From Truepera sp. (GTDB taxonomy: Bacteria > Deinococcota > Deinococci > Deinococcales > Trueperaceae), in NCBI GenBank assembly GCA_965218435.1, contig CBDCKW010000009.1:2592001-2656000 (forward strand): DNA of 64,000 nucleotides. The letters are read 5' to 3'. A model generated the notes under the pieces. The model did not search any database, was not told where the DNA came from, and saw nothing but the letters and a program-made list of their open reading frames with translations. The first letter of the stretch is position 1; every line of letters begins with the position of its first letter. Made by a program: the position numbers and the translations under genes. Of this stretch, positions 34,789-43,369 are shown piece by piece.

Positions 34789-35844
34789 GGCTTTGTTGCA
34801 TAAATGCCCCAACCGAGCTAGCTGCGCTTATCGTCGTCGGTACAGCTCAGGTTACGAGGTAACTTTGCGGCTTAGCCAGCTGAATCATCTTATTAAGAGC
34901 TTTGCACTTGAGCTTGAGTTCAACGACTTGGTTTTTGAAGCAGCGGGAAGAGGCTTGAGCGGTAAAGGTTGTTTTGAAGCGAAACATGGTGGTTTCAGCT
35001 AAGGAGCGGCGGTGATAGTGGCATAAACGTTTCCACTTTTTACGTCCGTGCTTTCTGATCGCACGCAGGTTTTCGTCTCTAGGATGAGGTGCTTGCTTGC
35101 AGTTGCCGTGTTGCCAAATCTTGGCGTCCTTACGTGGTGCAATGGCGGCTTTGACATTACGCTCACTAAGTAGGTCATAGCAGCTTCTCTGATCGTAGGC
35201 ACCATCAGCACCAACTTGTTCGATGTTCGCTTCAACTAGCTCAAGCAGCGGCTCCAAAAGCTGACCATCCTTCTTGTCATTGCGCGTCACCTCGGCTGCT
35301 AGGATTTCACCACTGGTTTCATCTACCGCTAGATGCAATTTGCGCCAAGTGCGACGCTTGCTCGCCCCATGTTGTCTAGTCTTCCATTCCCCTTCACCGT
35401 AAATCTTGATGCCAGTCGCGTCGATGACGACGTATCTAGCACCCTCTCTAGGCAGAACAGGCAGTTTGACCTCCAAGCTGGCTAGGCGTCTTGACACCGT
35501 GCTATGTTCCGGTACCCGTAAGTCAACCTCATCAGATCAAAGATGGCTGTGACCATGCCCGTTGCTTGACGTCCTGCTAAGCCGTAAACGCTTTTGATGA
35601 CGGTGACAGTCTCAACCGCTACGTCACTGTACTTGCGGCTCGCGCCACGTCGCCCCGTCTTTTTGGTATTGAACCACTGCGCTATGACCGCCTCATCCAG
35701 CCAAAAGGTAAGACTACCTCGCTGTTTTAAGCCTGCGTTATACTCGCTCCAGTTGCGGATTTTGTAGCTGTTTCGTTTTTTGCTTACACACCGAACTTAA
35801 TATCTGCTATCCGCAACCTTTTTGGCTATTTGTGCAACAACACC
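34789..35844 (-). mobile_element. IS5 family (IS903 group) insertion sequence, no target-site duplication
   Basis: Inverted ends GGCTTTGTTGCATAAAT (34789) and ATTTGTGCAACAACACC (ends 35844); flanks ATTTTTATG vs ACGCCGCAT differ. Confidence 0.9.
34847..35787 (-). pseudogene. IS5/IS903 DDE transposase, frameshifted
   Basis: N-part YKIRNWSEYNAGLKQRGSLTFWLDE is out of frame (shift near 35530) with C-part IDATGIKIYGEGEW...RRTWRKLHL...ADGAYD...YHRRSLAET; apparent start codon reads GTA. Confidence 0.88.
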
Positions 35845-36024
35845 ACGCCGCATCCGAAGTTCTGCGCGTTACGAAAACTCGAGACTAGCCTCAGCTTGCT
35901 CGAGCTGAGGGCGAACTTTACCTGACTTGAACGAGTTTCGCTTCGTCGCAGAACCGCTCCCGGTCAAGCTACCGACAGCCAAGCCAAAGCTCTCGATTCA
36001 ACCTGTGCTTTTTGAGGCGACGAA

Positions 36025-37017
36025 ATGACCGCTGACATCCAAGCCCTCAAAAATGCCGTTCCATTCCCGGAACTCGTCAGCGAAACACACATTATCGGAC
36101 GTGACGGTAAGGTGCTGTGCCCCGCTTATAGCGACACGCGGCCCTCATGCCATGTTTACCCTGACGGCTGGAAATGCTTCAGCTGCGGTGCTCACGGTGA
36201 CGTGCTCGACTGGCTCGAGCTAGTCCATAATTTGAGCTTTACTGAAGCGACTGAAGCACTACAGAGACGCGCCGGGATGTACCCCCCGGTTAGCGAGCGC
36301 CCGGTTAAGGTTAAGAAACCGGCCCCAACATTCAAGGTTGTTGACGAAAACATACTCGAGGCTCACCGCCGCCGCGCCGCTCAGCTTGACCGCGTGCCCC
36401 TTGCGCTGAAGGAGCGCGGGTTCAATCTGAACGATTTGAAACGCTTAGGAATTGCAGCCTACGGCCCGGATGCCGTCCTACCTATCACCGGCCCGGATGG
36501 AACGACACTCGCACTCAAAAAACGCTTTGCCGAGCCCTACGAAGGGCAACGCTACCGCTACGTTGTACCGGGACACGGCACGCCCGCATGGTGCTCACCC
36601 GGATTTTTAGACCACGACCGGCTGTTCCTCTGTGAAGGCGAATTGAACGGAACGATTTGCTCTTTGGTCTGTCCTGAAATCGGAGTCATGGCAACTGCCG
36701 GGACATCCGGCGCTTTACATCTGGAAGCTCTACGGGGCCGCACCGTTTACGTCTACGCCGATGCCGACGCTACAGGTCAGGCCGCCCGTGATGAATGGGC
36801 ATCGTCGGCGCTTTCGGCGGGCGCTGCAAAGGTGTTTGTGCTCGAGGCTTGGTCTGCTGATGCCTGCGACTTTGCCGGACAGAGCGGACGTTCTGCACTT
36901 CGGGGGCTGCTCATCCGTAGCCTCGAGACTGCAAAAGCTTTTGACCCCACATTTACCGAACAGCCCCCATTTAACGAACACGGTAGTTCGTCAAATAAAA
37001 GCCCGTGGGGTTACTGA
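36025..37017 (+). CDS. DnaG-like primase (CHC2 zinc finger + TOPRIM)
   Basis: CPAY...PS...WKCFSCGAHGD; LCEGELN; YADADATG. Confidence 0.8.
   Translation: MTADIQALKNAVPFPELVSETHIIGRDGKVLCPAYSDTRPSCHVYPDGWKCFSCGAHGDVLDWLELVHNLSFTEATEALQRRAGMYPPVSERPVKVKKPAPTFKVVDENILEAHRRRAAQLDRVPLALKERGFNLNDLKRLGIAAYGPDAVLPITGPDGTTLALKKRFAEPYEGQRYRYVVPGHGTPAWCSPGFLDHDRLFLCEGELNGTICSLVCPEIGVMATAGTSGALHLEALRGRTVYVYADADATGQAARDEWASSALSAGAAKVFVLEAWSADACDFAGQSGRSALRGLLIRSLETAKAFDPTFTEQPPFNEHGSSSNKSPWGY
36951..36996. repeat. Iteron-like repeats (ATTTNNCGAAC) including an N6-spaced inverted pair
   Basis: ATTTACCGAAC 36951, ATTTAACGAAC 36969, GTTCGTCAAAT 36986. Confidence 0.6.
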
Positions 37018-38252
37018 TGGCAGTCAACAAGTTGGAACTCCCAATCGTGCCGCCTAAAGCGTCGTGGGCCGTGACCAACATCTTTCCGGTAGGCCACACA
37101 TCTATGCTTTACGCTCCTGCTGGAGTCGGCAAAACCCGCATCGTGTCTTACCTGGCAGCGCAGATGACAAGACCATATCCGAACGGGCTTTTTCTAGGGC
37201 ACGAGGTACGCGGGGGCCGTGTCGTCATCTTAGATGCAGACGACCCGACTGGCTACGGCTATGCAGTCTGGCTTAACCGCTTTCTAGCAGCTCATGCTGA
37301 CACACGCCGCGAGCTGATAGACCTCCGTTCTATCACCGGAGGGCTCACCCCTGAAGATGTCGCCAAACTTCAGGATGAACTGAAGGGCAAACCGCCGCGC
37401 CTTATCGTCATAGACACCTTCGCATCTGCCTTTGTCGGGCTCGACATCCTAAGAGCGCACCACGTACAGCTTGCGCTTGTGGGGCTGGCACAGCTAGCCA
37501 AAGATTTGAACTGTGCCGTGCTCATCCTTGACCACGTATGCAAGTTGCAACCCGGTCAAACGGTAGCGAGTAAAGGCCCTTACGGTGCGGCTAAGACCTT
37601 CAGCCCCCGCGCTGTGTTTGCACTTTCCAGAGTGCCACCTAAAGAAGTAGAGGGCCGGGACATCCTGAAACTGGAATGTACCAAGATGAGCTACGCCCCA
37701 GAACCGCCGCCCAAAGGGGTAGAAATCACCCTCGAGCAAAACGACACCGTAGCCCGTGCCAAGCTTGCCGACCTACCCGGCAAGACAATGTTAGAGGATG
37801 CGGTCAAGGCGATAGAGGACAAACTCAAGTCAGCACAAGGCGAGCATGTACCTCGGAAACTACTGCTTAACGCTGCTGTTGAGAAGGTGAACATCACCCA
37901 GCGGTATGCAGAGAAAGCACTCGACAAGCTTATAGATGAATTGGGCAACCGGCTCGAGGTCATCACCTTACCGGCTAAAGGGAGCCCCAAGGCTTATAGG
38001 TATGTGTTGAGTTCGTCAAATGACAAGATTAGCGTCCCTGACGGTGAATCATTTGACGAACAGCTTAGTTCGTCAAATGAACCTTATGACCGTTTGCGTT
38101 CCAGACTTGAGCGGGGAGATTGGGCGGTTCCGAGTGCTGAGAGGCTACTCGACTACTACCGCCGCGCCGATGATGGCAACAGCTCAGCACAGACCGCGAT
38201 AGACGATTACCTAAAGAACCCTCAAGTCGTTCAGGCTCCCGAGGTCAACTGA
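37017..38252 (+). CDS. RepA-like SF4 helicase (AAA_25) with C-terminal winged helix
   Basis: Walker A APAGVGKT, LIVIDTF, LILDH; ATG overlaps the primase stop. Confidence 0.8.
   Translation: MAVNKLELPIVPPKASWAVTNIFPVGHTSMLYAPAGVGKTRIVSYLAAQMTRPYPNGLFLGHEVRGGRVVILDADDPTGYGYAVWLNRFLAAHADTRRELIDLRSITGGLTPEDVAKLQDELKGKPPRLIVIDTFASAFVGLDILRAHHVQLALVGLAQLAKDLNCAVLILDHVCKLQPGQTVASKGPYGAAKTFSPRAVFALSRVPPKEVEGRDILKLECTKMSYAPEPPPKGVEITLEQNDTVARAKLADLPGKTMLEDAVKAIEDKLKSAQGEHVPRKLLLNAAVEKVNITQRYAEKALDKLIDELGNRLEVITLPAKGSPKAYRYVLSSSNDKISVPDGESFDEQLSSSNEPYDRLRSRLERGDWAVPSAERLLDYYRRADDGNSSAQTAIDDYLKNPQVVQAPEVN
38011..38078. repeat. Iteron-like repeats, putative replication origin
   Basis: GTTCGTCAAAT 38011; ATTTGACGAAC-agctta-GTTCGTCAAAT 38051-38078. 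Confidence 0.65.
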
Positions 38253-38461
38253 GATGCCTCATCCGATTGATACCTACCTTGACGCGCAGCTCAGGACGCT
38301 CGAGCATCTTTATGCCCAGCACTGTCCTACCTGAAACTCAACACGCCCGTCGCCTCGTTCGCCACGTTCACTTTCACAAACAGCGAGGACTAACACCTCT
38401 TAAGCGCCGTTACCTGCTTGCCGACATCCGGGCTATGACCCACATCTTGAAAGGGAAAATC

Positions 38462-38900
38462 ATGAACCACAACCTTGACGAAATCCACACCGCACTTGAT
38501 TCCGCTACTGCCGACCTTGCTTTGAAACCGCCGCATCACCCTCGAGGCTGAACTTAGTGGCCTCGCAACTCAGGAAGCCGGTGTACTGAAGCAACTCGCG
38601 CCCCTTCAGGCCGAACTTCAGCGCCTTGAGCCACCCGCACCCGCCCCACGCCCCCAAGATGTTGAGCGTCTTGGGCAACTCACGGCAATCCTGCACTCGA
38701 AACTCGCAAAGACCCCGCGAAACTCACCCACCGCTGCACGGGTCAGGGAGCAGCTCCCTCGTCTTAACGACGAAACCGTTTCCGTTCACGACCGCCTGGG
38801 TATCGCCAAAGGCTTGATGTCTGAACTCAGCGACTGGTATCAGCGTGACCGTCAGGTTTGGGACCTTGCTGAAGGTCGTGCTGCCCAAAGGCTCCGCTAA
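38462..38900 (+). pseudogene. Frameshifted coiled-coil hypothetical protein
   Basis: MNHNLDEIHTALDSATADLALK continues in the +1 frame as NRRITLEAELSGLATQEAGVLKQL...RLR*, ending 2 nt before the next GTG. Confidence 0.55.
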
Positions 38901-38902
38901 CC

Positions 38903-39379
38903 GTGCCCCGTGTTTGCACCGTTTGTAACCATAGCCAACGGGCAGAAATTGAGCAGCTGCTACTTGAAAACGAACCTTTGCGGGACGTAGCGGGACGCTA
39001 CCGGGTTTCTAAATCGGCTCTGGAGAGGCACAAAAAGGCGCACATCCCTTTAGCCTTAGTGAAAGCTCAGAACGCTGCTGAAGCTGCCCAAGCCGACACG
39101 CTACTCGAGCAGGTGCAACACCTTAAGGCTCGAGCCTTAACCATCCTCGACAAAGCTGAAGGGGCAGGCGACTTAAAGACTGCTCTCTCAGCAATTCGGG
39201 AAGCCCGGAACACGCTAGAGCTGCTGGCTAAACTCATGGGTGAGCTTGACGAAAGCCCGACCATCAATCTTGTGAGCGTCCCGGAATGGCTCAACTTACG
39301 CGCCGTCGTCATTCAAGCGTTGCTACCCTTTCCGGCAGCTGCGAAAGCTGTAGTAGAAGCCCTTCATGAATCTCCGTAG
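38903..39379 (+). CDS. Putative small terminase subunit (CxxC + HTH + helical oligomerisation region)
   Basis: CTVCNH, LRDVAGRYRVSKSALERH HTH; immediately upstream of and overlapping the TerL ATPase gene. Confidence 0.6.
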   Translation: MPRVCTVCNHSQRAEIEQLLLENEPLRDVAGRYRVSKSALERHKKAHIPLALVKAQNAAEAAQADTLLEQVQHLKARALTILDKAEGAGDLKTALSAIREARNTLELLAKLMGELDESPTINLVSVPEWLNLRAVVIQALLPFPAAAKAVVEALHESP

Positions 39380-40124
39380 CGATTTAAGATTTGCCCTGTC
39401 ACCGGCTGACTTTGCCTCTGAGCTGCTAGGACTCGAGCTTGACCCCTGGCAACGCGGTGTTTTGGAAAGCATCGGCAAAAGAGACATCTTGAACATCACG
39501 CGGCAGGGGGGCAAAAGCACTGTGTCGGCTGTTCTGGCTTTACACCAAGCCCTGTACCGACCCGGCTCACTCTCTATTTTGGTCAGCCCGTCACAACGTC
39601 AGAGCGGCGAACTTTTCCGTAAGTGTCTCGAGTTCAAAGCACGCTTACCTCGTCAGCCCGACCTGGTAGAAGATTCCAAGACTTCACTCAACCTCGTCTC
39701 CGGGGGCCGAATCGTGAGCCTACCCGGTAGTGAGGCCACGGTCAGAGGTTTTAGTGCAGCAAACCTGATTATCGCGGATGAGGCGGCACGAATTGACGAC
39801 AGCCTTTATCTGGCGATTCGTCCGATGTTGGCAACCTCAAACGGCAGGCTGATACTGATGTCAACACCGTTTGGCCGTCGTGGTTTCTTTTGGCGTGAAT
39901 GGGACACAGGCGTGAACTGGAACCGGGTTGAGGTTCCTGCTACGTCTATACCCCGCATCTCGGCAGCGTTCCTAGCAGAGGAACGTGCATCTATGCCTGC
40001 ACTTTGGTACTCACAAGAATACTGCTGCGTCTTCGGAGAAAATACCGACAGCGTTTTTGCCTATGCCGACGTACAAAACGCCTTATCAGATGACATACAA
40101 CCGCTCTTTGGAGGTAGCTTATGA
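39366..40124 (+). CDS. Large terminase, ATPase domain only
   Basis: LDPWQ (Q motif), TRQGGKST (Walker A), LIIADEAA (Walker B), LMSTP (motif III), SQEY. Confidence 0.88.
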   Translation: MNLRSDLRFALSPADFASELLGLELDPWQRGVLESIGKRDILNITRQGGKSTVSAVLALHQALYRPGSLSILVSPSQRQSGELFRKCLEFKARLPRQPDLVEDSKTSLNLVSGGRIVSLPGSEATVRGFSAANLIIADEAARIDDSLYLAIRPMLATSNGRLILMSTPFGRRGFFWREWDTGVNWNRVEVPATSIPRISAAFLAEERASMPALWYSQEYCCVFGENTDSVFAYADVQNALSDDIQPLFGGSL

Positions 40125-40840
40125 CTCAGCAAACGAAGCAACCCGCCGCTGTAGCGCCGGTACTACCGCCGCCTGTTTATCTCTTAGGCGTTGACCTGGC
40201 ACAATCCGCTGATTTCACCGCGCTAGTCGTGCTTGAGTGCTCGTTCGTTGATACCGGCAAAGTTGAGAACGGCCTGCCCAGCATGACCGTCAGACTGCCG
40301 AGCGGACGCTCTTACGGGGGTGAGTCTCGCACCCGTCCGGTCTATGAACACCACTACGCTTGCCGTCACCTCGAGCGATTACCACGGGGTACGCCCTACC
40401 CGGCTCAGGTTGCAAGGATTAAGCAGCTATCGGATGAACTCACCAAGACCACTGGAACGACGCCGCGCCTGGTAGCTGACGCGACCGGCGTTGGTAGGCC
40501 GGTTTTGGACATGCTGCGCTCTGCTGGACTCTCACCAGCTGCAATTACGATTACCGGCGGCGATAACGTTTCACAAGATGGGCTCGACTACCGCGTTCCT
40601 AAAAGAGATTTGGTCTCCGTGATACAGGTGCTTTTGCAAAGTCAACGGCTGAAGATTGCCCGCGCCTTACCCGAAGCCGATACCCTCACCGCTGAACTCT
40701 TATCGTTCAAAGTGTCTATCAGACTGAAGGGTCATGATAGTTACGGAAACGATAAGGGCGAATGGCGCGAGAACCCGCATGATGATTTGGTTTTGGCGTG
40801 TTCACTCGCTGCTTGGTTTGGGGAGACGCAGCGGCGTTGA
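40121..40840 (+). CDS. Large terminase, RNase H-like nuclease domain only
   Basis: LGVDLAQSADFTA, VADATGVG, HDDLVLA; own GGAGG RBS at 40110 and ATGA overlap. Confidence 0.82.
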   Translation: MTQQTKQPAAVAPVLPPPVYLLGVDLAQSADFTALVVLECSFVDTGKVENGLPSMTVRLPSGRSYGGESRTRPVYEHHYACRHLERLPRGTPYPAQVARIKQLSDELTKTTGTTPRLVADATGVGRPVLDMLRSAGLSPAAITITGGDNVSQDGLDYRVPKRDLVSVIQVLLQSQRLKIARALPEADTLTAELLSFKVSIRLKGHDSYGNDKGEWRENPHDDLVLACSLAAWFGETQRR

Positions 40841-40858
40841 CGCTCATGTCAGTACGCA

Positions 40859-40893
40859 TAAAAGAGCCCCGGCGCGTTGACCGGGGCTTCTCT
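40859..40893. terminator. Bidirectional terminator between convergent operons
   Basis: GAGCCCCGG-loop-CCGGGGCTT with flanking A-rich and T-rich tracts. Confidence 0.7.
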
Positions 40894-40906
40894 GGTGTTG
40901 GGGAAC

Positions 40907-41245
40907 CTACGCCGCTTCTCGGTAGCTCTCTACCTCTAACATCCGCACCTGATACCAGCATAAATCCCACTCGAGCCGTGCCGGTTCAAAAGCACACCGG
41001 GCTTCTGTCAGCGCGTCCTCTGCCTCAGCTAAGGCGGTGTAGTCGGATGAAAGCTCGAGCCTAAGCTTAGTGGCCCGCTCCCGTTTGTTCCTGCCGTCAA
41101 CGCTTTCACACAGTTTTAGGGCTTCAGTGTGCTCGAGCGTCCGCTTAGCTTCAGCGTGGGCTGTGACCGCACCGCATAAGGTGATCTGGGCATCCTCTAG
41201 TCCGTTCTTAGCGGTTGTCAGTTGGGAGAGAAGAGGGGGCATCAT
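40907..41245 (-). CDS. Small coiled-coil hypothetical phage protein
   Basis: Helical 112-aa ORF, ATGA-coupled to the upstream ORF. Confidence 0.6.
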   Translation of the reverse strand: MMPPLLSQLTTAKNGLEDAQITLCGAVTAHAEAKRTLEHTEALKLCESVDGRNKRERATKLRLELSSDYTALAEAEDALTEARCAFEPARLEWDLCWYQVRMLEVESYREAA

Positions 41246-41404
41246 GCTGCCTCTCCCCAGAAGTCATAGTCAGGTACTTCGTCTTGGATGATTGGGGGCA
41301 GTTCATCGTCTGCCCCGTCGTCCTCTGCCGCTAGCTCACAGAGCTTGCAAGTCCTCTTCACGGTCGCTGTACATCTCAATATCTGCGAAGGTAAAGGGGC
41401 TCAT
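41242..41404 (-). pseudogene. Frameshifted small, highly acidic protein
   Basis: MSPFTFADIEMYSDREEDLQAL* then ELAAEDDGADDELPPIIQDEVPDYDFWGEAA* in another frame. Confidence 0.45.
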
Positions 41405-41446
41405 TACAGAGCCCGCCTTGCGACACGTACCGCTTGATGGTGTACT

Positions 41447-41608
41447 TTACTTAGACACGAGGTTAAAGGCAGTGTCTAAAACCTCCCAGACGGTGCCCCA
41501 AGTCTGTAAGGAACCGACGATGTCGGAACCGCGTACTAAATCATACGCCTTGATAGGGGTGCGGTAGCTTGCGCCGTCTTGCTTGTGAAGGGTGATGGTA
41601 TTCTGCAT
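41447..41608 (-). CDS. 53-aa hypothetical protein, first gene divergent from the HTH regulator
   Basis: TAGGAG RBS; MQNTITLHKQDGASYRTPIKAYDLVRGSDIVGSLQTWGTVWEVLDTAFNLVSK. Confidence 0.5.
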   Translation of the reverse strand: MQNTITLHKQDGASYRTPIKAYDLVRGSDIVGSLQTWGTVWEVLDTAFNLVSK

Positions 41609-41772
41609 TTTAATCTCCTACTTACGGGATTCTAAGGGGCTTGCTTTTGCGGGCTCTGCCCCTTAGTGACTTAATGGTACCATGAGCTTTGGTATATATC
41701 AAGTACCTTGTAATCCCTTTTACTTTGTAGTAGTATAGACACATGGTAATACAAAGCCCTAATATATAGGAC

Positions 41773-42024
41773 GTGAAAGACAAAGCCATTTGGAAACTCC
41801 CAGAGCTATTAAAGCGTGAGGGCATTACGCCCTATCGGTTGCATAAAGACATAGAAGCAAGTGAGGGCGGCAAAGCCTCACGCAACACGATTTATAGATG
41901 GTCTAACGAACTGCCAGACACGTTAGATGTAGCGCTACTTATGAGTGTGCTCTACGCGGTGCGTGCCCGAACGGGTAAGGCTTTAAGTGTGTGCGACTTG
42001 CTCGAGTATAGAGAAGAGGCTTAA
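41773..42024 (+). CDS. XRE/Cro-like HTH regulator
   Basis: WKLPELLKREGITPYRL...SRNTIYRW...CDLLEY; directly upstream of the integrase. Confidence 0.8.
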   Translation: MKDKAIWKLPELLKREGITPYRLHKDIEASEGGKASRNTIYRWSNELPDTLDVALLMSVLYAVRARTGKALSVCDLLEYREEA

Positions 42025-42026
42025 AG

Positions 42027-43202
42027 GTGGCAGGGTCAAGAGGACAGATACTCGAGCGTAACTACGGCTTTCTCGTGCGGGTATTCGTCGGCAGAGACGC
42101 CACCGGCACCCGCATCTATCACAACCAAAAGGTAACGGGCACTAAGAAAGATGCCCAAAAGATACTGACGGCTGTTTTACGCAAGCTCGATATGGGCGAA
42201 CTCTTACTCGAGCCCTCAACCCAAACGGTAGAAGCGTACTGTGAGGACTGGCTTACGACGATTGCCCAGGGGCGTTTAGCTAAGAGCACCTTTAAGAATT
42301 ACTGCCACTACCTACGCAAACAGGTCTATCCGGCTGTGGGTAAGCAGAAGCTTGTGAGACTTGCCTCGAGAGACGTACAGAAGCTTTACGGCGATCTCTC
42401 AGCACGGGGTCTGTCCGGGCGCACCGTCCGCTACACGCACACCGTCCTCAACTCGGCACTAGAACACGCGGTAGCGCAGCGGCTTATACCCAGTAACCCT
42501 TGCAGGTACACCCAACTCCCCCGGCTCGACACGAAAGAGATGAACGCGATGAATGAGGCAGAGCGGGCCGCGTTTATAGAGGCTGCCACCCATAACCGGA
42601 TGCACGTCTACTTTGCGCTACTGCTAGCCACAGGCTTACGACCGGCTGAAGGGTTAGCCCTCAAGTGGGGAGACTTCGACCCGGTAAGCAAGACGCTACG
42701 CATCACCCGGACGCTCGAGTATGTTTCAGGTAAGGCGTATTTTAAGGAACCTAAGACGAAACGCTCACGGCGCACCATCAACTTGCATGACGGCACCGTG
42801 GCGCTGCTGTTAGAGCACAGACAAACGGGACTCATGCCGGGTGAACTGATTTTCAGCACGCTCACAGGTGAACCCTTTTACACAAATAACGTACTCAACC
42901 GCTACTTTAAGCCGTGCCTGGTAGCGGCAGGGCTGGCGACGGTTGAGGCGACCGCTAAGGGAACCGAGCGCATCGTGTCGAAGTTTCGGATGTACGACCT
43001 ACGCCATACCCACGCGACGATGTTGCTCGAGGCAAACGTCAACCCTAAAATTGTCAGCGAACGCTTGGGCCACGCTTCAGTCTCGCTTACCTTAGACACC
43101 TACAGCCACATTTTACCGACAATTCAAGATGCCGCAGTAGAGGCGCTAGGTTCAGCTCTTTATAGCGGGTCAAAAGTAGCTTTAGACCTACCCCTAAATT
43201 AG
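42027..43202 (+). CDS. Tyrosine integrase (phage/ICE type)
   Basis: TGLRPAE, PKT, YDLRHTHAT, LGH, TLDTYSH; N-terminal arm-binding and SAM-like domains. Confidence 0.95.
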   Translation: MAGSRGQILERNYGFLVRVFVGRDATGTRIYHNQKVTGTKKDAQKILTAVLRKLDMGELLLEPSTQTVEAYCEDWLTTIAQGRLAKSTFKNYCHYLRKQVYPAVGKQKLVRLASRDVQKLYGDLSARGLSGRTVRYTHTVLNSALEHAVAQRLIPSNPCRYTQLPRLDTKEMNAMNEAERAAFIEAATHNRMHVYFALLLATGLRPAEGLALKWGDFDPVSKTLRITRTLEYVSGKAYFKEPKTKRSRRTINLHDGTVALLLEHRQTGLMPGELIFSTLTGEPFYTNNVLNRYFKPCLVAAGLATVEATAKGTERIVSKFRMYDLRHTHATMLLEANVNPKIVSERLGHASVSLTLDTYSHILPTIQDAAVEALGSALYSGSKVALDLPLN

Positions 43203-43235
43203 TTTGGCACACGTCCGGCACATGAAATAGAAAAC

Positions 43236-43263
43236 GGTGAGGCTCTTAAGTGCGAGCCTCACC
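43236..43263. terminator. Hairpin terminator between the integrase and tRNA-Thr
   Basis: GGTGAGGCTC-N8-GAGCCTCACC. Confidence 0.7.
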
Positions 43264-43294
43264 TTAGTTTTATCGTCCCTGACGGTGTTTTTAC

Positions 43295-43369
43295 TGGAGC
43301 CGATGGTCGGAGTTGAACCGACGACCTATCGATTACGAATCGATTGCTCTACCTCTGAGCTACATCGGC
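43295..43369 (-). tRNA. tRNA-Thr(CGT)
   Basis: GCCGATGTAGCTCAG...ATCGA-TTCGTAA-TCGAT...GGTTCAACTCC...ATCGGCTCCA. Confidence 0.95.

Follow-up and report, generated by a model that had tools for sequence, protein, structure and literature searches.

We analysed a 64,000-nucleotide stretch of Truepera sp. DNA (phylum Deinococcota, family Trueperaceae; contig CBDCKW010000009.1 of assembly GCA_965218435.1, positions 2,592,001 to 2,656,000), called the window below, which holds an integrated element between its positions 35,845 and 43,294, next to a tRNA-Thr gene. An earlier reading of the letters alone (the original prediction) had listed there a primase, an SF4 helicase, a gene resembling a small terminase (TerS), the ATPase and the nuclease of a large terminase (TerL), a helix-turn-helix (HTH) regulator and an integrase; all of these genes are present, with Pfam or PHROG matches for every one but the TerS-like gene (Table 1). 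From the insertion sequence (IS) on the left to tRNA-Thr there is no gene for a portal, capsid, tail or lysis protein, and that reading had likewise noted none after the terminase. The left end is indeed deleted: an IS5-family element stands there and the left attachment (att) site, attL, is gone. Taken with the relatives described below, this gene content indicates that the window carries a member of a widespread family of 10–18-kb mobile islands that encode a two-piece packaging enzyme and no recognisable phage shell.

The three terminase-region genes overlap by 14 and 4 nt. The hairpin that had been called the terminator of their operon is present, but only in the minus-strand direction does it score as one; for the plus-strand operon its T-run is poor. 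The broken open reading frame (ORF) just upstream of the trio, where a contig of run X1 matches the window sequence, was missing from the earlier gene list.

Table 1. Features of the element and its borders (positions in the window)
Feature	Position	Strand	Evidence
IS5-family insertion sequence, foreign to the element, in the place of its left end	34789..35845 (approx.)	-	DDE_Tnp_1 2e-26; terminal inverted repeats
Putative remnant of an HTH_17-type gene, apparently cut by the IS	35929..36017	+	71% DNA match to the family member on contig C8, which carries HTH_17
DnaG-type primase	36025..37017	+	CHC2 Zn finger 5.5e-11; Toprim_3 4e-5
RecA/SF4-like helicase	37005..38252	+	AAA_25 4e-25
94-aa ORF, doubtful	38267..38551	+	no family; no homologue in the genome
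Broken helix-rich gene, just upstream of the small terminase-like gene	~38463..38897	+	55% over 129 aa to L029:9801-10244 (intact, sister element)
Predicted small terminase, 158 aa	38903..39379	+	CxxC and HTH, long two-helix region, C-terminal helices
Stand-alone TerL ATPase domain, 252 aa	39366..40124	+	phrog_7579 3e-56; PDB 4zni 1e-20
Stand-alone TerL RNase H/RuvC-fold nuclease, 239 aa	40121..40840	+	phrog_27743 2e-35; PDB 5m1q/5m1f/5tge 3e-14
Hairpin between convergent genes	40865..40888	.	terminator-like on minus strand only
112-aa backbone gene	40907..41245	-	77-79% in sister elements with or without terminase
53-aa backbone gene	41447..41608	-	75-81% in sister elements
Cro/C1-type HTH regulator	41773..42024	+	HTH_26 0.005; same family in sister elements
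Tyrosine integrase	42027..43202	+	phrog_1 2e-71
Bidirectional terminator-like hairpin	43236..43263	.	
tRNA-Thr(cgt), putative attachment site	43295..43369	-	partner att repeat missing

Complete relatives without portal or capsid genes

The original prediction had proposed a search for homologues of the trio at 38903–40840, the extraction of copies bounded by att repeats and a scan with PHROG profiles. From the genome searches described below and from scans of genome, viral and metagenome contigs (the best 80 loci each for the latter two), 22 elements could be bounded as complete: direct repeats enclose 15 of them, and seven are circular contigs. The repeats measure 17–87 bp, three of them being imperfect, and 13 of the 15 repeat-bounded elements sit at tRNAs. 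The 22 elements span 9.7–17.6 kb (median 11.7), and the 15 att-bounded ones (9.7–17.3 kb) share the same gene order. Intact copies of 8–12 kb had been foreseen; complete copies exist, but they reach larger sizes.

Selected ORFs of the 22 elements, with the aim of including all of at least 230 aa, yielded no match to a portal or major capsid protein, and no capsid-morphogenesis gene was matched. The only families that recur across the set are those of the integrase, the primase/helicase, HTH/xis proteins, the small gene and both TerL halves; families for conjugation or export are not among them. The window's small-gene family occurs in 19 of the 22, a second family in one and neither in two. 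Several circular contigs show no integrase and have a plasmid-like look, and in L063 an IS lies within the ATPase gene.

Among 364 genomes of the host's phylum, the ATPase query matched 14, the window's own included. Seven of 127 genomes of the host's family matched, with the split TerL beside integrases, as did 6 of 68 in another family of the phylum, where the four loci examined are prophages with a fused TerL; portal and capsid were confirmed in the fused-TerL prophage L066. With profiles as queries, 9 of 301 genomes gave a match in the phylum to which an Acidobacteriota record belongs, and 7 of 301 in that of a Thermomicrobiales record. The original prediction had recognised no such family in Deinococcota, and we found no published description either, but the family extends beyond that phylum, its complete relatives spanning at least three.

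A large terminase divided between two genes

The window ATPase matches 4zni, the P74-26 TerL ATPase, and aligns with residues 4–220 of the fused 417-aa TerL of Thermus phage Riverbug at 47% identity. The nuclease matches those of G20c and P74-26 in sequence and in fold (model pLDDT 82.6; Foldseek top matches) and aligns with residues 304–399 of the Riverbug chain; the split therefore falls at the domain boundary. The match of the nuclease to Terminase_6C (7e-4) lies below the cut-off. Together the two genes hold the marks of a large terminase, namely an ASCE ATPase with Walker A, Walker B and coupling motif and an RNase H-fold nuclease with three acidic residues. The window nuclease has D25, D31, D120 and H220-D221-D222, and the conserved nuclease aspartates align to G20c D294, D347 and D429, which are described as needed for catalysis (PMC5389553).

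The three nuclease aspartates, the Walker A lysine and the Walker B DE are conserved in all 22 complete elements, and the coupling motif, the lid EY and the other ATPase motifs are as conserved in portal-less as in portal-linked copies. Nei–Gojobori dN/dS values for ATPase and nuclease are 0.04 and 0.15 in the portal-less pair L064–L065 and 0.15 and 0.21 in the portal-less pair L059–L060, and purifying selection holds at dS 0.2 to >1. By these sequence measures the terminase of the complete elements is 'alive', kept under purifying selection with its catalytic residues intact. ATPase and nuclease identities are often uncoupled between loci (for example, 90% versus 36%), which suggests that the halves have been exchanged separately. 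The split-terminase family also looks large, with 4,233 stand-alone nuclease proteins found, phage and element copies pooled.

The split terminase in phages

A portal accompanies the split TerL at 21 of the 73 viral loci that were labelled; loci whose ATPase match was short or frameshifted received no label. The portals downstream of it in viral contigs belong to five PHROG families, which indicates that the lineage of this motor has operated on more than one kind of portal. Because the same split terminase adjoins portals in real phages, the two-gene TerL is a functional phage form. Decay was considered as the origin of the split and rejected, since the split recurs in portal-bearing phages. 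The two-gene TerL lies upstream of the portal in viral loci L070, L092, L099, L102, L106, L107, L109 and L115, and likewise in L118, L125, L140–L142, L145 and L148. Outside the viral set, a portal was found at 1 of 28 genome loci with split TerL and context, and at none of 25 metagenome loci with context (78 of the best 80 were labelled, 53 of them too short).

The relationship of the two kinds of locus was examined in a quick IQ-TREE phylogeny of 116 ATPase rows, from which 77 of 193 distinct ATPase sequences with too little context were omitted. The window ATPase falls within a nine-row clade (SH-aLRT 99; branches 0.15–0.5) without adjacent portals, four rows of which are complete elements. 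Across the tree, portal-less and portal-linked ATPases are interleaved, and portal-less L123 is about 80% identical to L097, which counts as portal-linked by position only. The hypothesis that the portal-less rows are monophyletic was rejected (56 rows, p-AU 1.6e-12).

Three cultured phages of the host's phylum, Riverbug and the Meiothermus phages MMP7 and MMP17, carry a homologue of the window's small gene (about 41% identity) immediately upstream of terL and a fused TerL of the window family (ATPase 43–47%); the TerL of P74-26/G20c is also of this type. Unlike the islands, Riverbug and MMP7/MMP17 have TerL as a single chain of 417 aa, with portal and head genes after it.

Some small loci stand between islands and phages. 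In the 8.8-kb circle L126 a major capsid gene accompanies the trio, an integrase and a primase, with no portal, and the 9.8-kb circle L110 has a primase, a portal, a capsid gene and a split TerL; both are possible intermediates towards elements like those phage-inducible chromosomal islands that form capsids (cf-PICIs). With split terminases in true phages and these two capsid-bearing circles, the boundary to cf-PICI-like elements seems porous. Tape-measure genes lie next to a split terminase, with no portal seen, in L006, L074, L076/L196 and L187 (PHROG matches for L006, L074 and L076; L187 judged by look only).

A predicted small terminase

The protein encoded just upstream of the ATPase combines a CxxC motif with an HTH-like start, a pair of long helices and a short tail that is also helical (alignment A3; model pLDDT 86.9). 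It belongs to no Pfam or PHROG family, and neither profiles nor fold comparison matched it to a known TerS. Its position and HTH-helical architecture, which agree with the layout of TerS given in general terms for lambda (PMC9026076), are the only two grounds for predicting a small terminase and for the earlier 'TerS-like' label. In the Riverbug record (PQ109080.1; L286:6001-8243) the homologue upstream of terL is an unannotated gene, which may be that phage's true TerS; no element carries the gene annotated as TerS there, which has no PHROG match.

A second small-gene family (A4) occurs at L031:13454-14129, L033:8979-9508, L041 and L059–L065. Behind it comes either a TerL ATPase that bears an additional leader at its N-terminus or a short ORF with a leader of similar kind at its start; this may represent an adaptor that binds TerS, or a relic of TerL. 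Homology between the A3 and A4 families was sought and not found. Often, an ORF of 150–230 aa rich in E, L, A, K, R and Q lies just upstream of the small gene (L002, L063, L078, L152, L252, L262, L029 and, in the window, 38463–38897). These ORFs have no common sequence; a scaffold-like or capsid-size factor would be a guess.

Proposed mechanism and its alternatives

We think it probable, from the gene content, that the elements act as satellites resembling phage-inducible chromosomal islands (PICIs), bringing a whole packaging motor and needing no more than the proheads and tails of an incoming helper. On this model the island would excise and replicate during phage infection, the small protein would select element DNA, and the ATPase and nuclease would assemble without a linker. 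The element's TerL would then dock on a foreign portal, cut element DNA and pump it into the helper's empty proheads. Because no capsid-resizing gene was recognised, the 10–13-kb unit would probably be packaged as a headful concatemer, as described for PICMI (PMC10803314). At G255:C21 (L061, L271) a terminase-bearing element adjoins a full prophage with its own unrelated TerS and TerL, a candidate satellite–helper pair.

Several points weigh against this reading. The elements are known here from sequence, from which docking, packaging and the role of the predicted TerS are deduced. In the window's own genome, neither a portal nor a capsid gene was detected with PF04860, PF05065, PF05133, phrog_113 and 24 reference proteins (the phrog_113 control matched nowhere), so the helper would have to be incoming; none of 70 CRISPR spacers matches any of the loci. 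The one full prophage found beside an element has an unrelated terminase, and the depositors of Riverbug annotate another gene as its TerS. The isolated P74-26 nuclease is reported neither to bind nor to cut DNA (bioRxiv 080440), and a split enzyme would thus need a putative non-covalent tether. The same source gives the C-terminal tail as the part through which TerL is thought to bind the portal, and the tails of the window and sister nucleases, 17 and 15 aa after HDD, are the shortest found. Finally, profile searches miss some portals, such as the positional portal in L271, which escaped both PHROG and Pfam, and 5 of the 22 elements (L089, L101, L123, L216 and L265) hold an unassigned ORF of 340–425 aa on the terminase strand.

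The very short tails would suit a satellite whose terminase only cuts or marks its own concatemers, or poisons the helper motor through mixed rings, with the helper's TerL doing the translocation. TerL is, moreover, optional in the wider family, as same-genome relatives, circles C8 and C6 among them, have the small gene without it, and known satellites such as PLE are described as targeting the helper motor. A pure inhibitor, however, would not need the ATPase motifs, all of which are conserved, including the coupling motif and the lid EY, and tails reach 20–83 aa in most complete elements; we consider this alternative unlikely. Loss of the C-terminal tail from portal-less TerLs as a class was rejected, there being no difference from portal-linked copies (p = 0.23, 22 versus 22). 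Could the terminase instead have been turned to a job outside virions, resolving replication concatemers or feeding DNA to vesicles or another export route? The lack of a detected helper or portal in the window's genome, the plasmid-like circles without a visible integrase and the RuvC-like nuclease fold would agree with such a role. The interleaving of portal-less with portal-linked ATPases, which can be about 80% identical, argues against a changed function, and the elements have no common conjugation or export family, which makes this improbable in our view.

Repeated decay of prophages or cf-PICIs that have lost their head genes, with the terminase still to erode, fits the decaying window copy, the scatter of portal-less elements over more than one clade and the small circles with a major capsid gene (L126) or with portal and capsid genes (L110). 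It does not fit 15 elements with both att repeats, a narrow size range and one gene order, nor purifying selection over such divergence, nor a nine-row ATPase clade of that depth without adjacent portals. Intact relatives with capsid, portal and tail genes, which the original prediction had named as the sign of a decayed prophage or cf-PICI, for the most part did not turn up, and that outcome fails for the family; decay is thus already largely refuted, and we hold it to be very improbable. Still less weight goes to the view that a shell is encoded but escapes the profiles now in use. The overlooked L271 portal, the five large unassigned ORFs and a weak head-protease match in L211 (9e-7) speak for it, but 17 of the 22 elements, the sister L029 included, have by our own reading no unassigned ORF of at least 340 aa on the terminase strand, and the large ORFs form no recurring family.

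Comparison with known satellites

If the elements do bring their own motor to foreign heads, they might, more tentatively, represent a new cross-phylum class of 'motor-bearing' satellites, with a complete modular terminase and a swappable, separately encoded nuclease, which would dock on the portals of unrelated helpers, steal whole empty heads and tails, and leave the helper terminase untouched. Such a class would be the missing step from PICIs (TerS only) to cf-PICIs (whole head). PICIs are described as carrying TerS (or Rpp) and using the helper's TerL, and terL in cf-PICIs as coming with portal and head–tail genes (PMC10085698; bioRxiv 2022.09.08.507074). As in PICIs and SaPIs, an integrase, a regulator and a primase-replicase precede the packaging gene, the size is around 10 kb, portal, tail and holin are absent, and defence cargo is present (PMC10085698). 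The integrase sits at a chromosomal att site (without attL in the window copy), and the regulator is of HTH_26 type, or HTH_17 in sisters. For the excision, replication and packaging that a helper induces in PICIs, the signs here are indirect, namely the depth step at the attL of the sister element and the circular contigs. Unlike PICIs, which rely on the helper's TerL, the window-family elements encode TerL, on two genes, and terL is given as a cf-PICI-specific component (PMC10085698); no capsid-morphogenesis gene is recognised in them, and such a gene is also absent from type B PICIs.

With cf-PICIs they share a TerL of their own, here beside a predicted TerS, after an integrase–regulator–primase backbone (bioRxiv 2022.09.08.507074; PMC10085698), but their TerL is split and of the P74-26/T4 type, and no capsid, portal, protease, head–tail connector or HNH gene was found in the 22 elements, the weak L211 protease match aside. 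Nor did the 15 att-bounded elements give matches to the portal, major capsid and tail genes that a Caudoviricetes prophage has inside its att sites. Window-family elements would work like a PICI, yet miss a defining feature of both PICI and cf-PICI.

PICMI, VEIMEs and PICI-like tycheposons resemble them in being small, integrated at tRNAs or genes and without capsid remodelling, and their helper can be an incoming phage; concatemer packaging is a likely parallel. These groups are described with no terminase, or with TerS or the major capsid protein only (PMC10803314, PMC9618062, bioRxiv 2020.12.28.424599), and VEIME TerL is expected to come from the helper (PMC9618062). EPIPs, at about 11 kb, also have an incomplete structural set, and some relatives found here have a tape-measure gene as EPIPs do; the EPIP description lists TerS, head–tail proteins, a scaffold, a tape-measure protein and a serine integrase, with TerL not listed (PMC12822802). 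In the literature we found neither a terL-positive, portal-negative satellite nor a naturally split TerL, although the search did not extend to most subscription papers or to supplements such as the SatelliteFinder tables, where variants of this kind may be listed.

The satellites known from the literature take one of two routes, diverting the large terminase of the helper or making an entire head. A motor-only family would imply that a large terminase is able to operate at a portal not its own, a point relevant to the docking of TerL and to the domain that contacts the portal, and a naturally split TerL offers a clean system for separating ATPase from nuclease roles. Terminase matches are a standard marker for calling viruses, and such elements have therefore probably been counted as phages.

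The window copy and its relatives in the same genome

The window region is a damaged copy without att sites in pair: an IS5 element occupies the left end, attL is gone and one ORF is broken. No attL was found within 80 kb or genome-wide, and the last 14–25 nt of tRNA-Thr are single-copy in the genome, so attL has been lost and this copy would be unable to excise. An intact relative, L252, uses the same tRNA-Thr as its target, with a 48-bp repeat. No target duplication flanking the IS copy was seen. One contig of run X2 bridges the IS junction, but runs X1 and X2 derive from one sample, and X2 is probably from the source sample and so no independent check of the assembly. Inside the IS5 transposase, X2 has one extra base at window position 35529; the frameshift there may be an assembly error.

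The same genome (G000) contains an intact 13.6-kb sister element, L029, at tRNA-Met, with a perfect 57-bp att repeat (G000:C9:2055620-2069264, which is L029:5551-19264), and this sister is a better experimental target than the window copy. Its small gene, ATPase and nuclease are 43, 61 and 59% identical to those of the window; it differs in its primase, carries SMODS as cargo and gave neither a portal nor a capsid match. By contig depth, a rough measure, the sister lies at about half the level of its flanks, with a step at attL (runs X1 and X2), whereas the window copy is near flank depth. Half depth would be expected if the sister's site were occupied in part of the population, and it is a hint of recent mobility. 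No excision joints were found among the run contigs, and contigs alone are no evidence either way.

TerL is missing from further elements of this genome that share the backbone: one of 25.5 kb at tRNA-Val, one of 8.6 kb at tRNA-Ala and two circular contigs. Contigs C8 and C6 of G000 (L033, L034) consist of doubled 10.5-kb and 13.0-kb units without TerL, and thus represent circular family members in the same assembly; C8 shows no integrase. Further broken terL remnants are present at G000:C9 ~1391800-1392740 and at C5 ~485200, one of them near tRNA-Trp. Defence cargo on members or their neighbours (L029, L030, L275, L031, L036 and L163) comprises SMODS, type I and type III restriction–modification, SIR2, DarTG, CBASS-like patatin–nucleotidyltransferase and NB-ARC–TPR.

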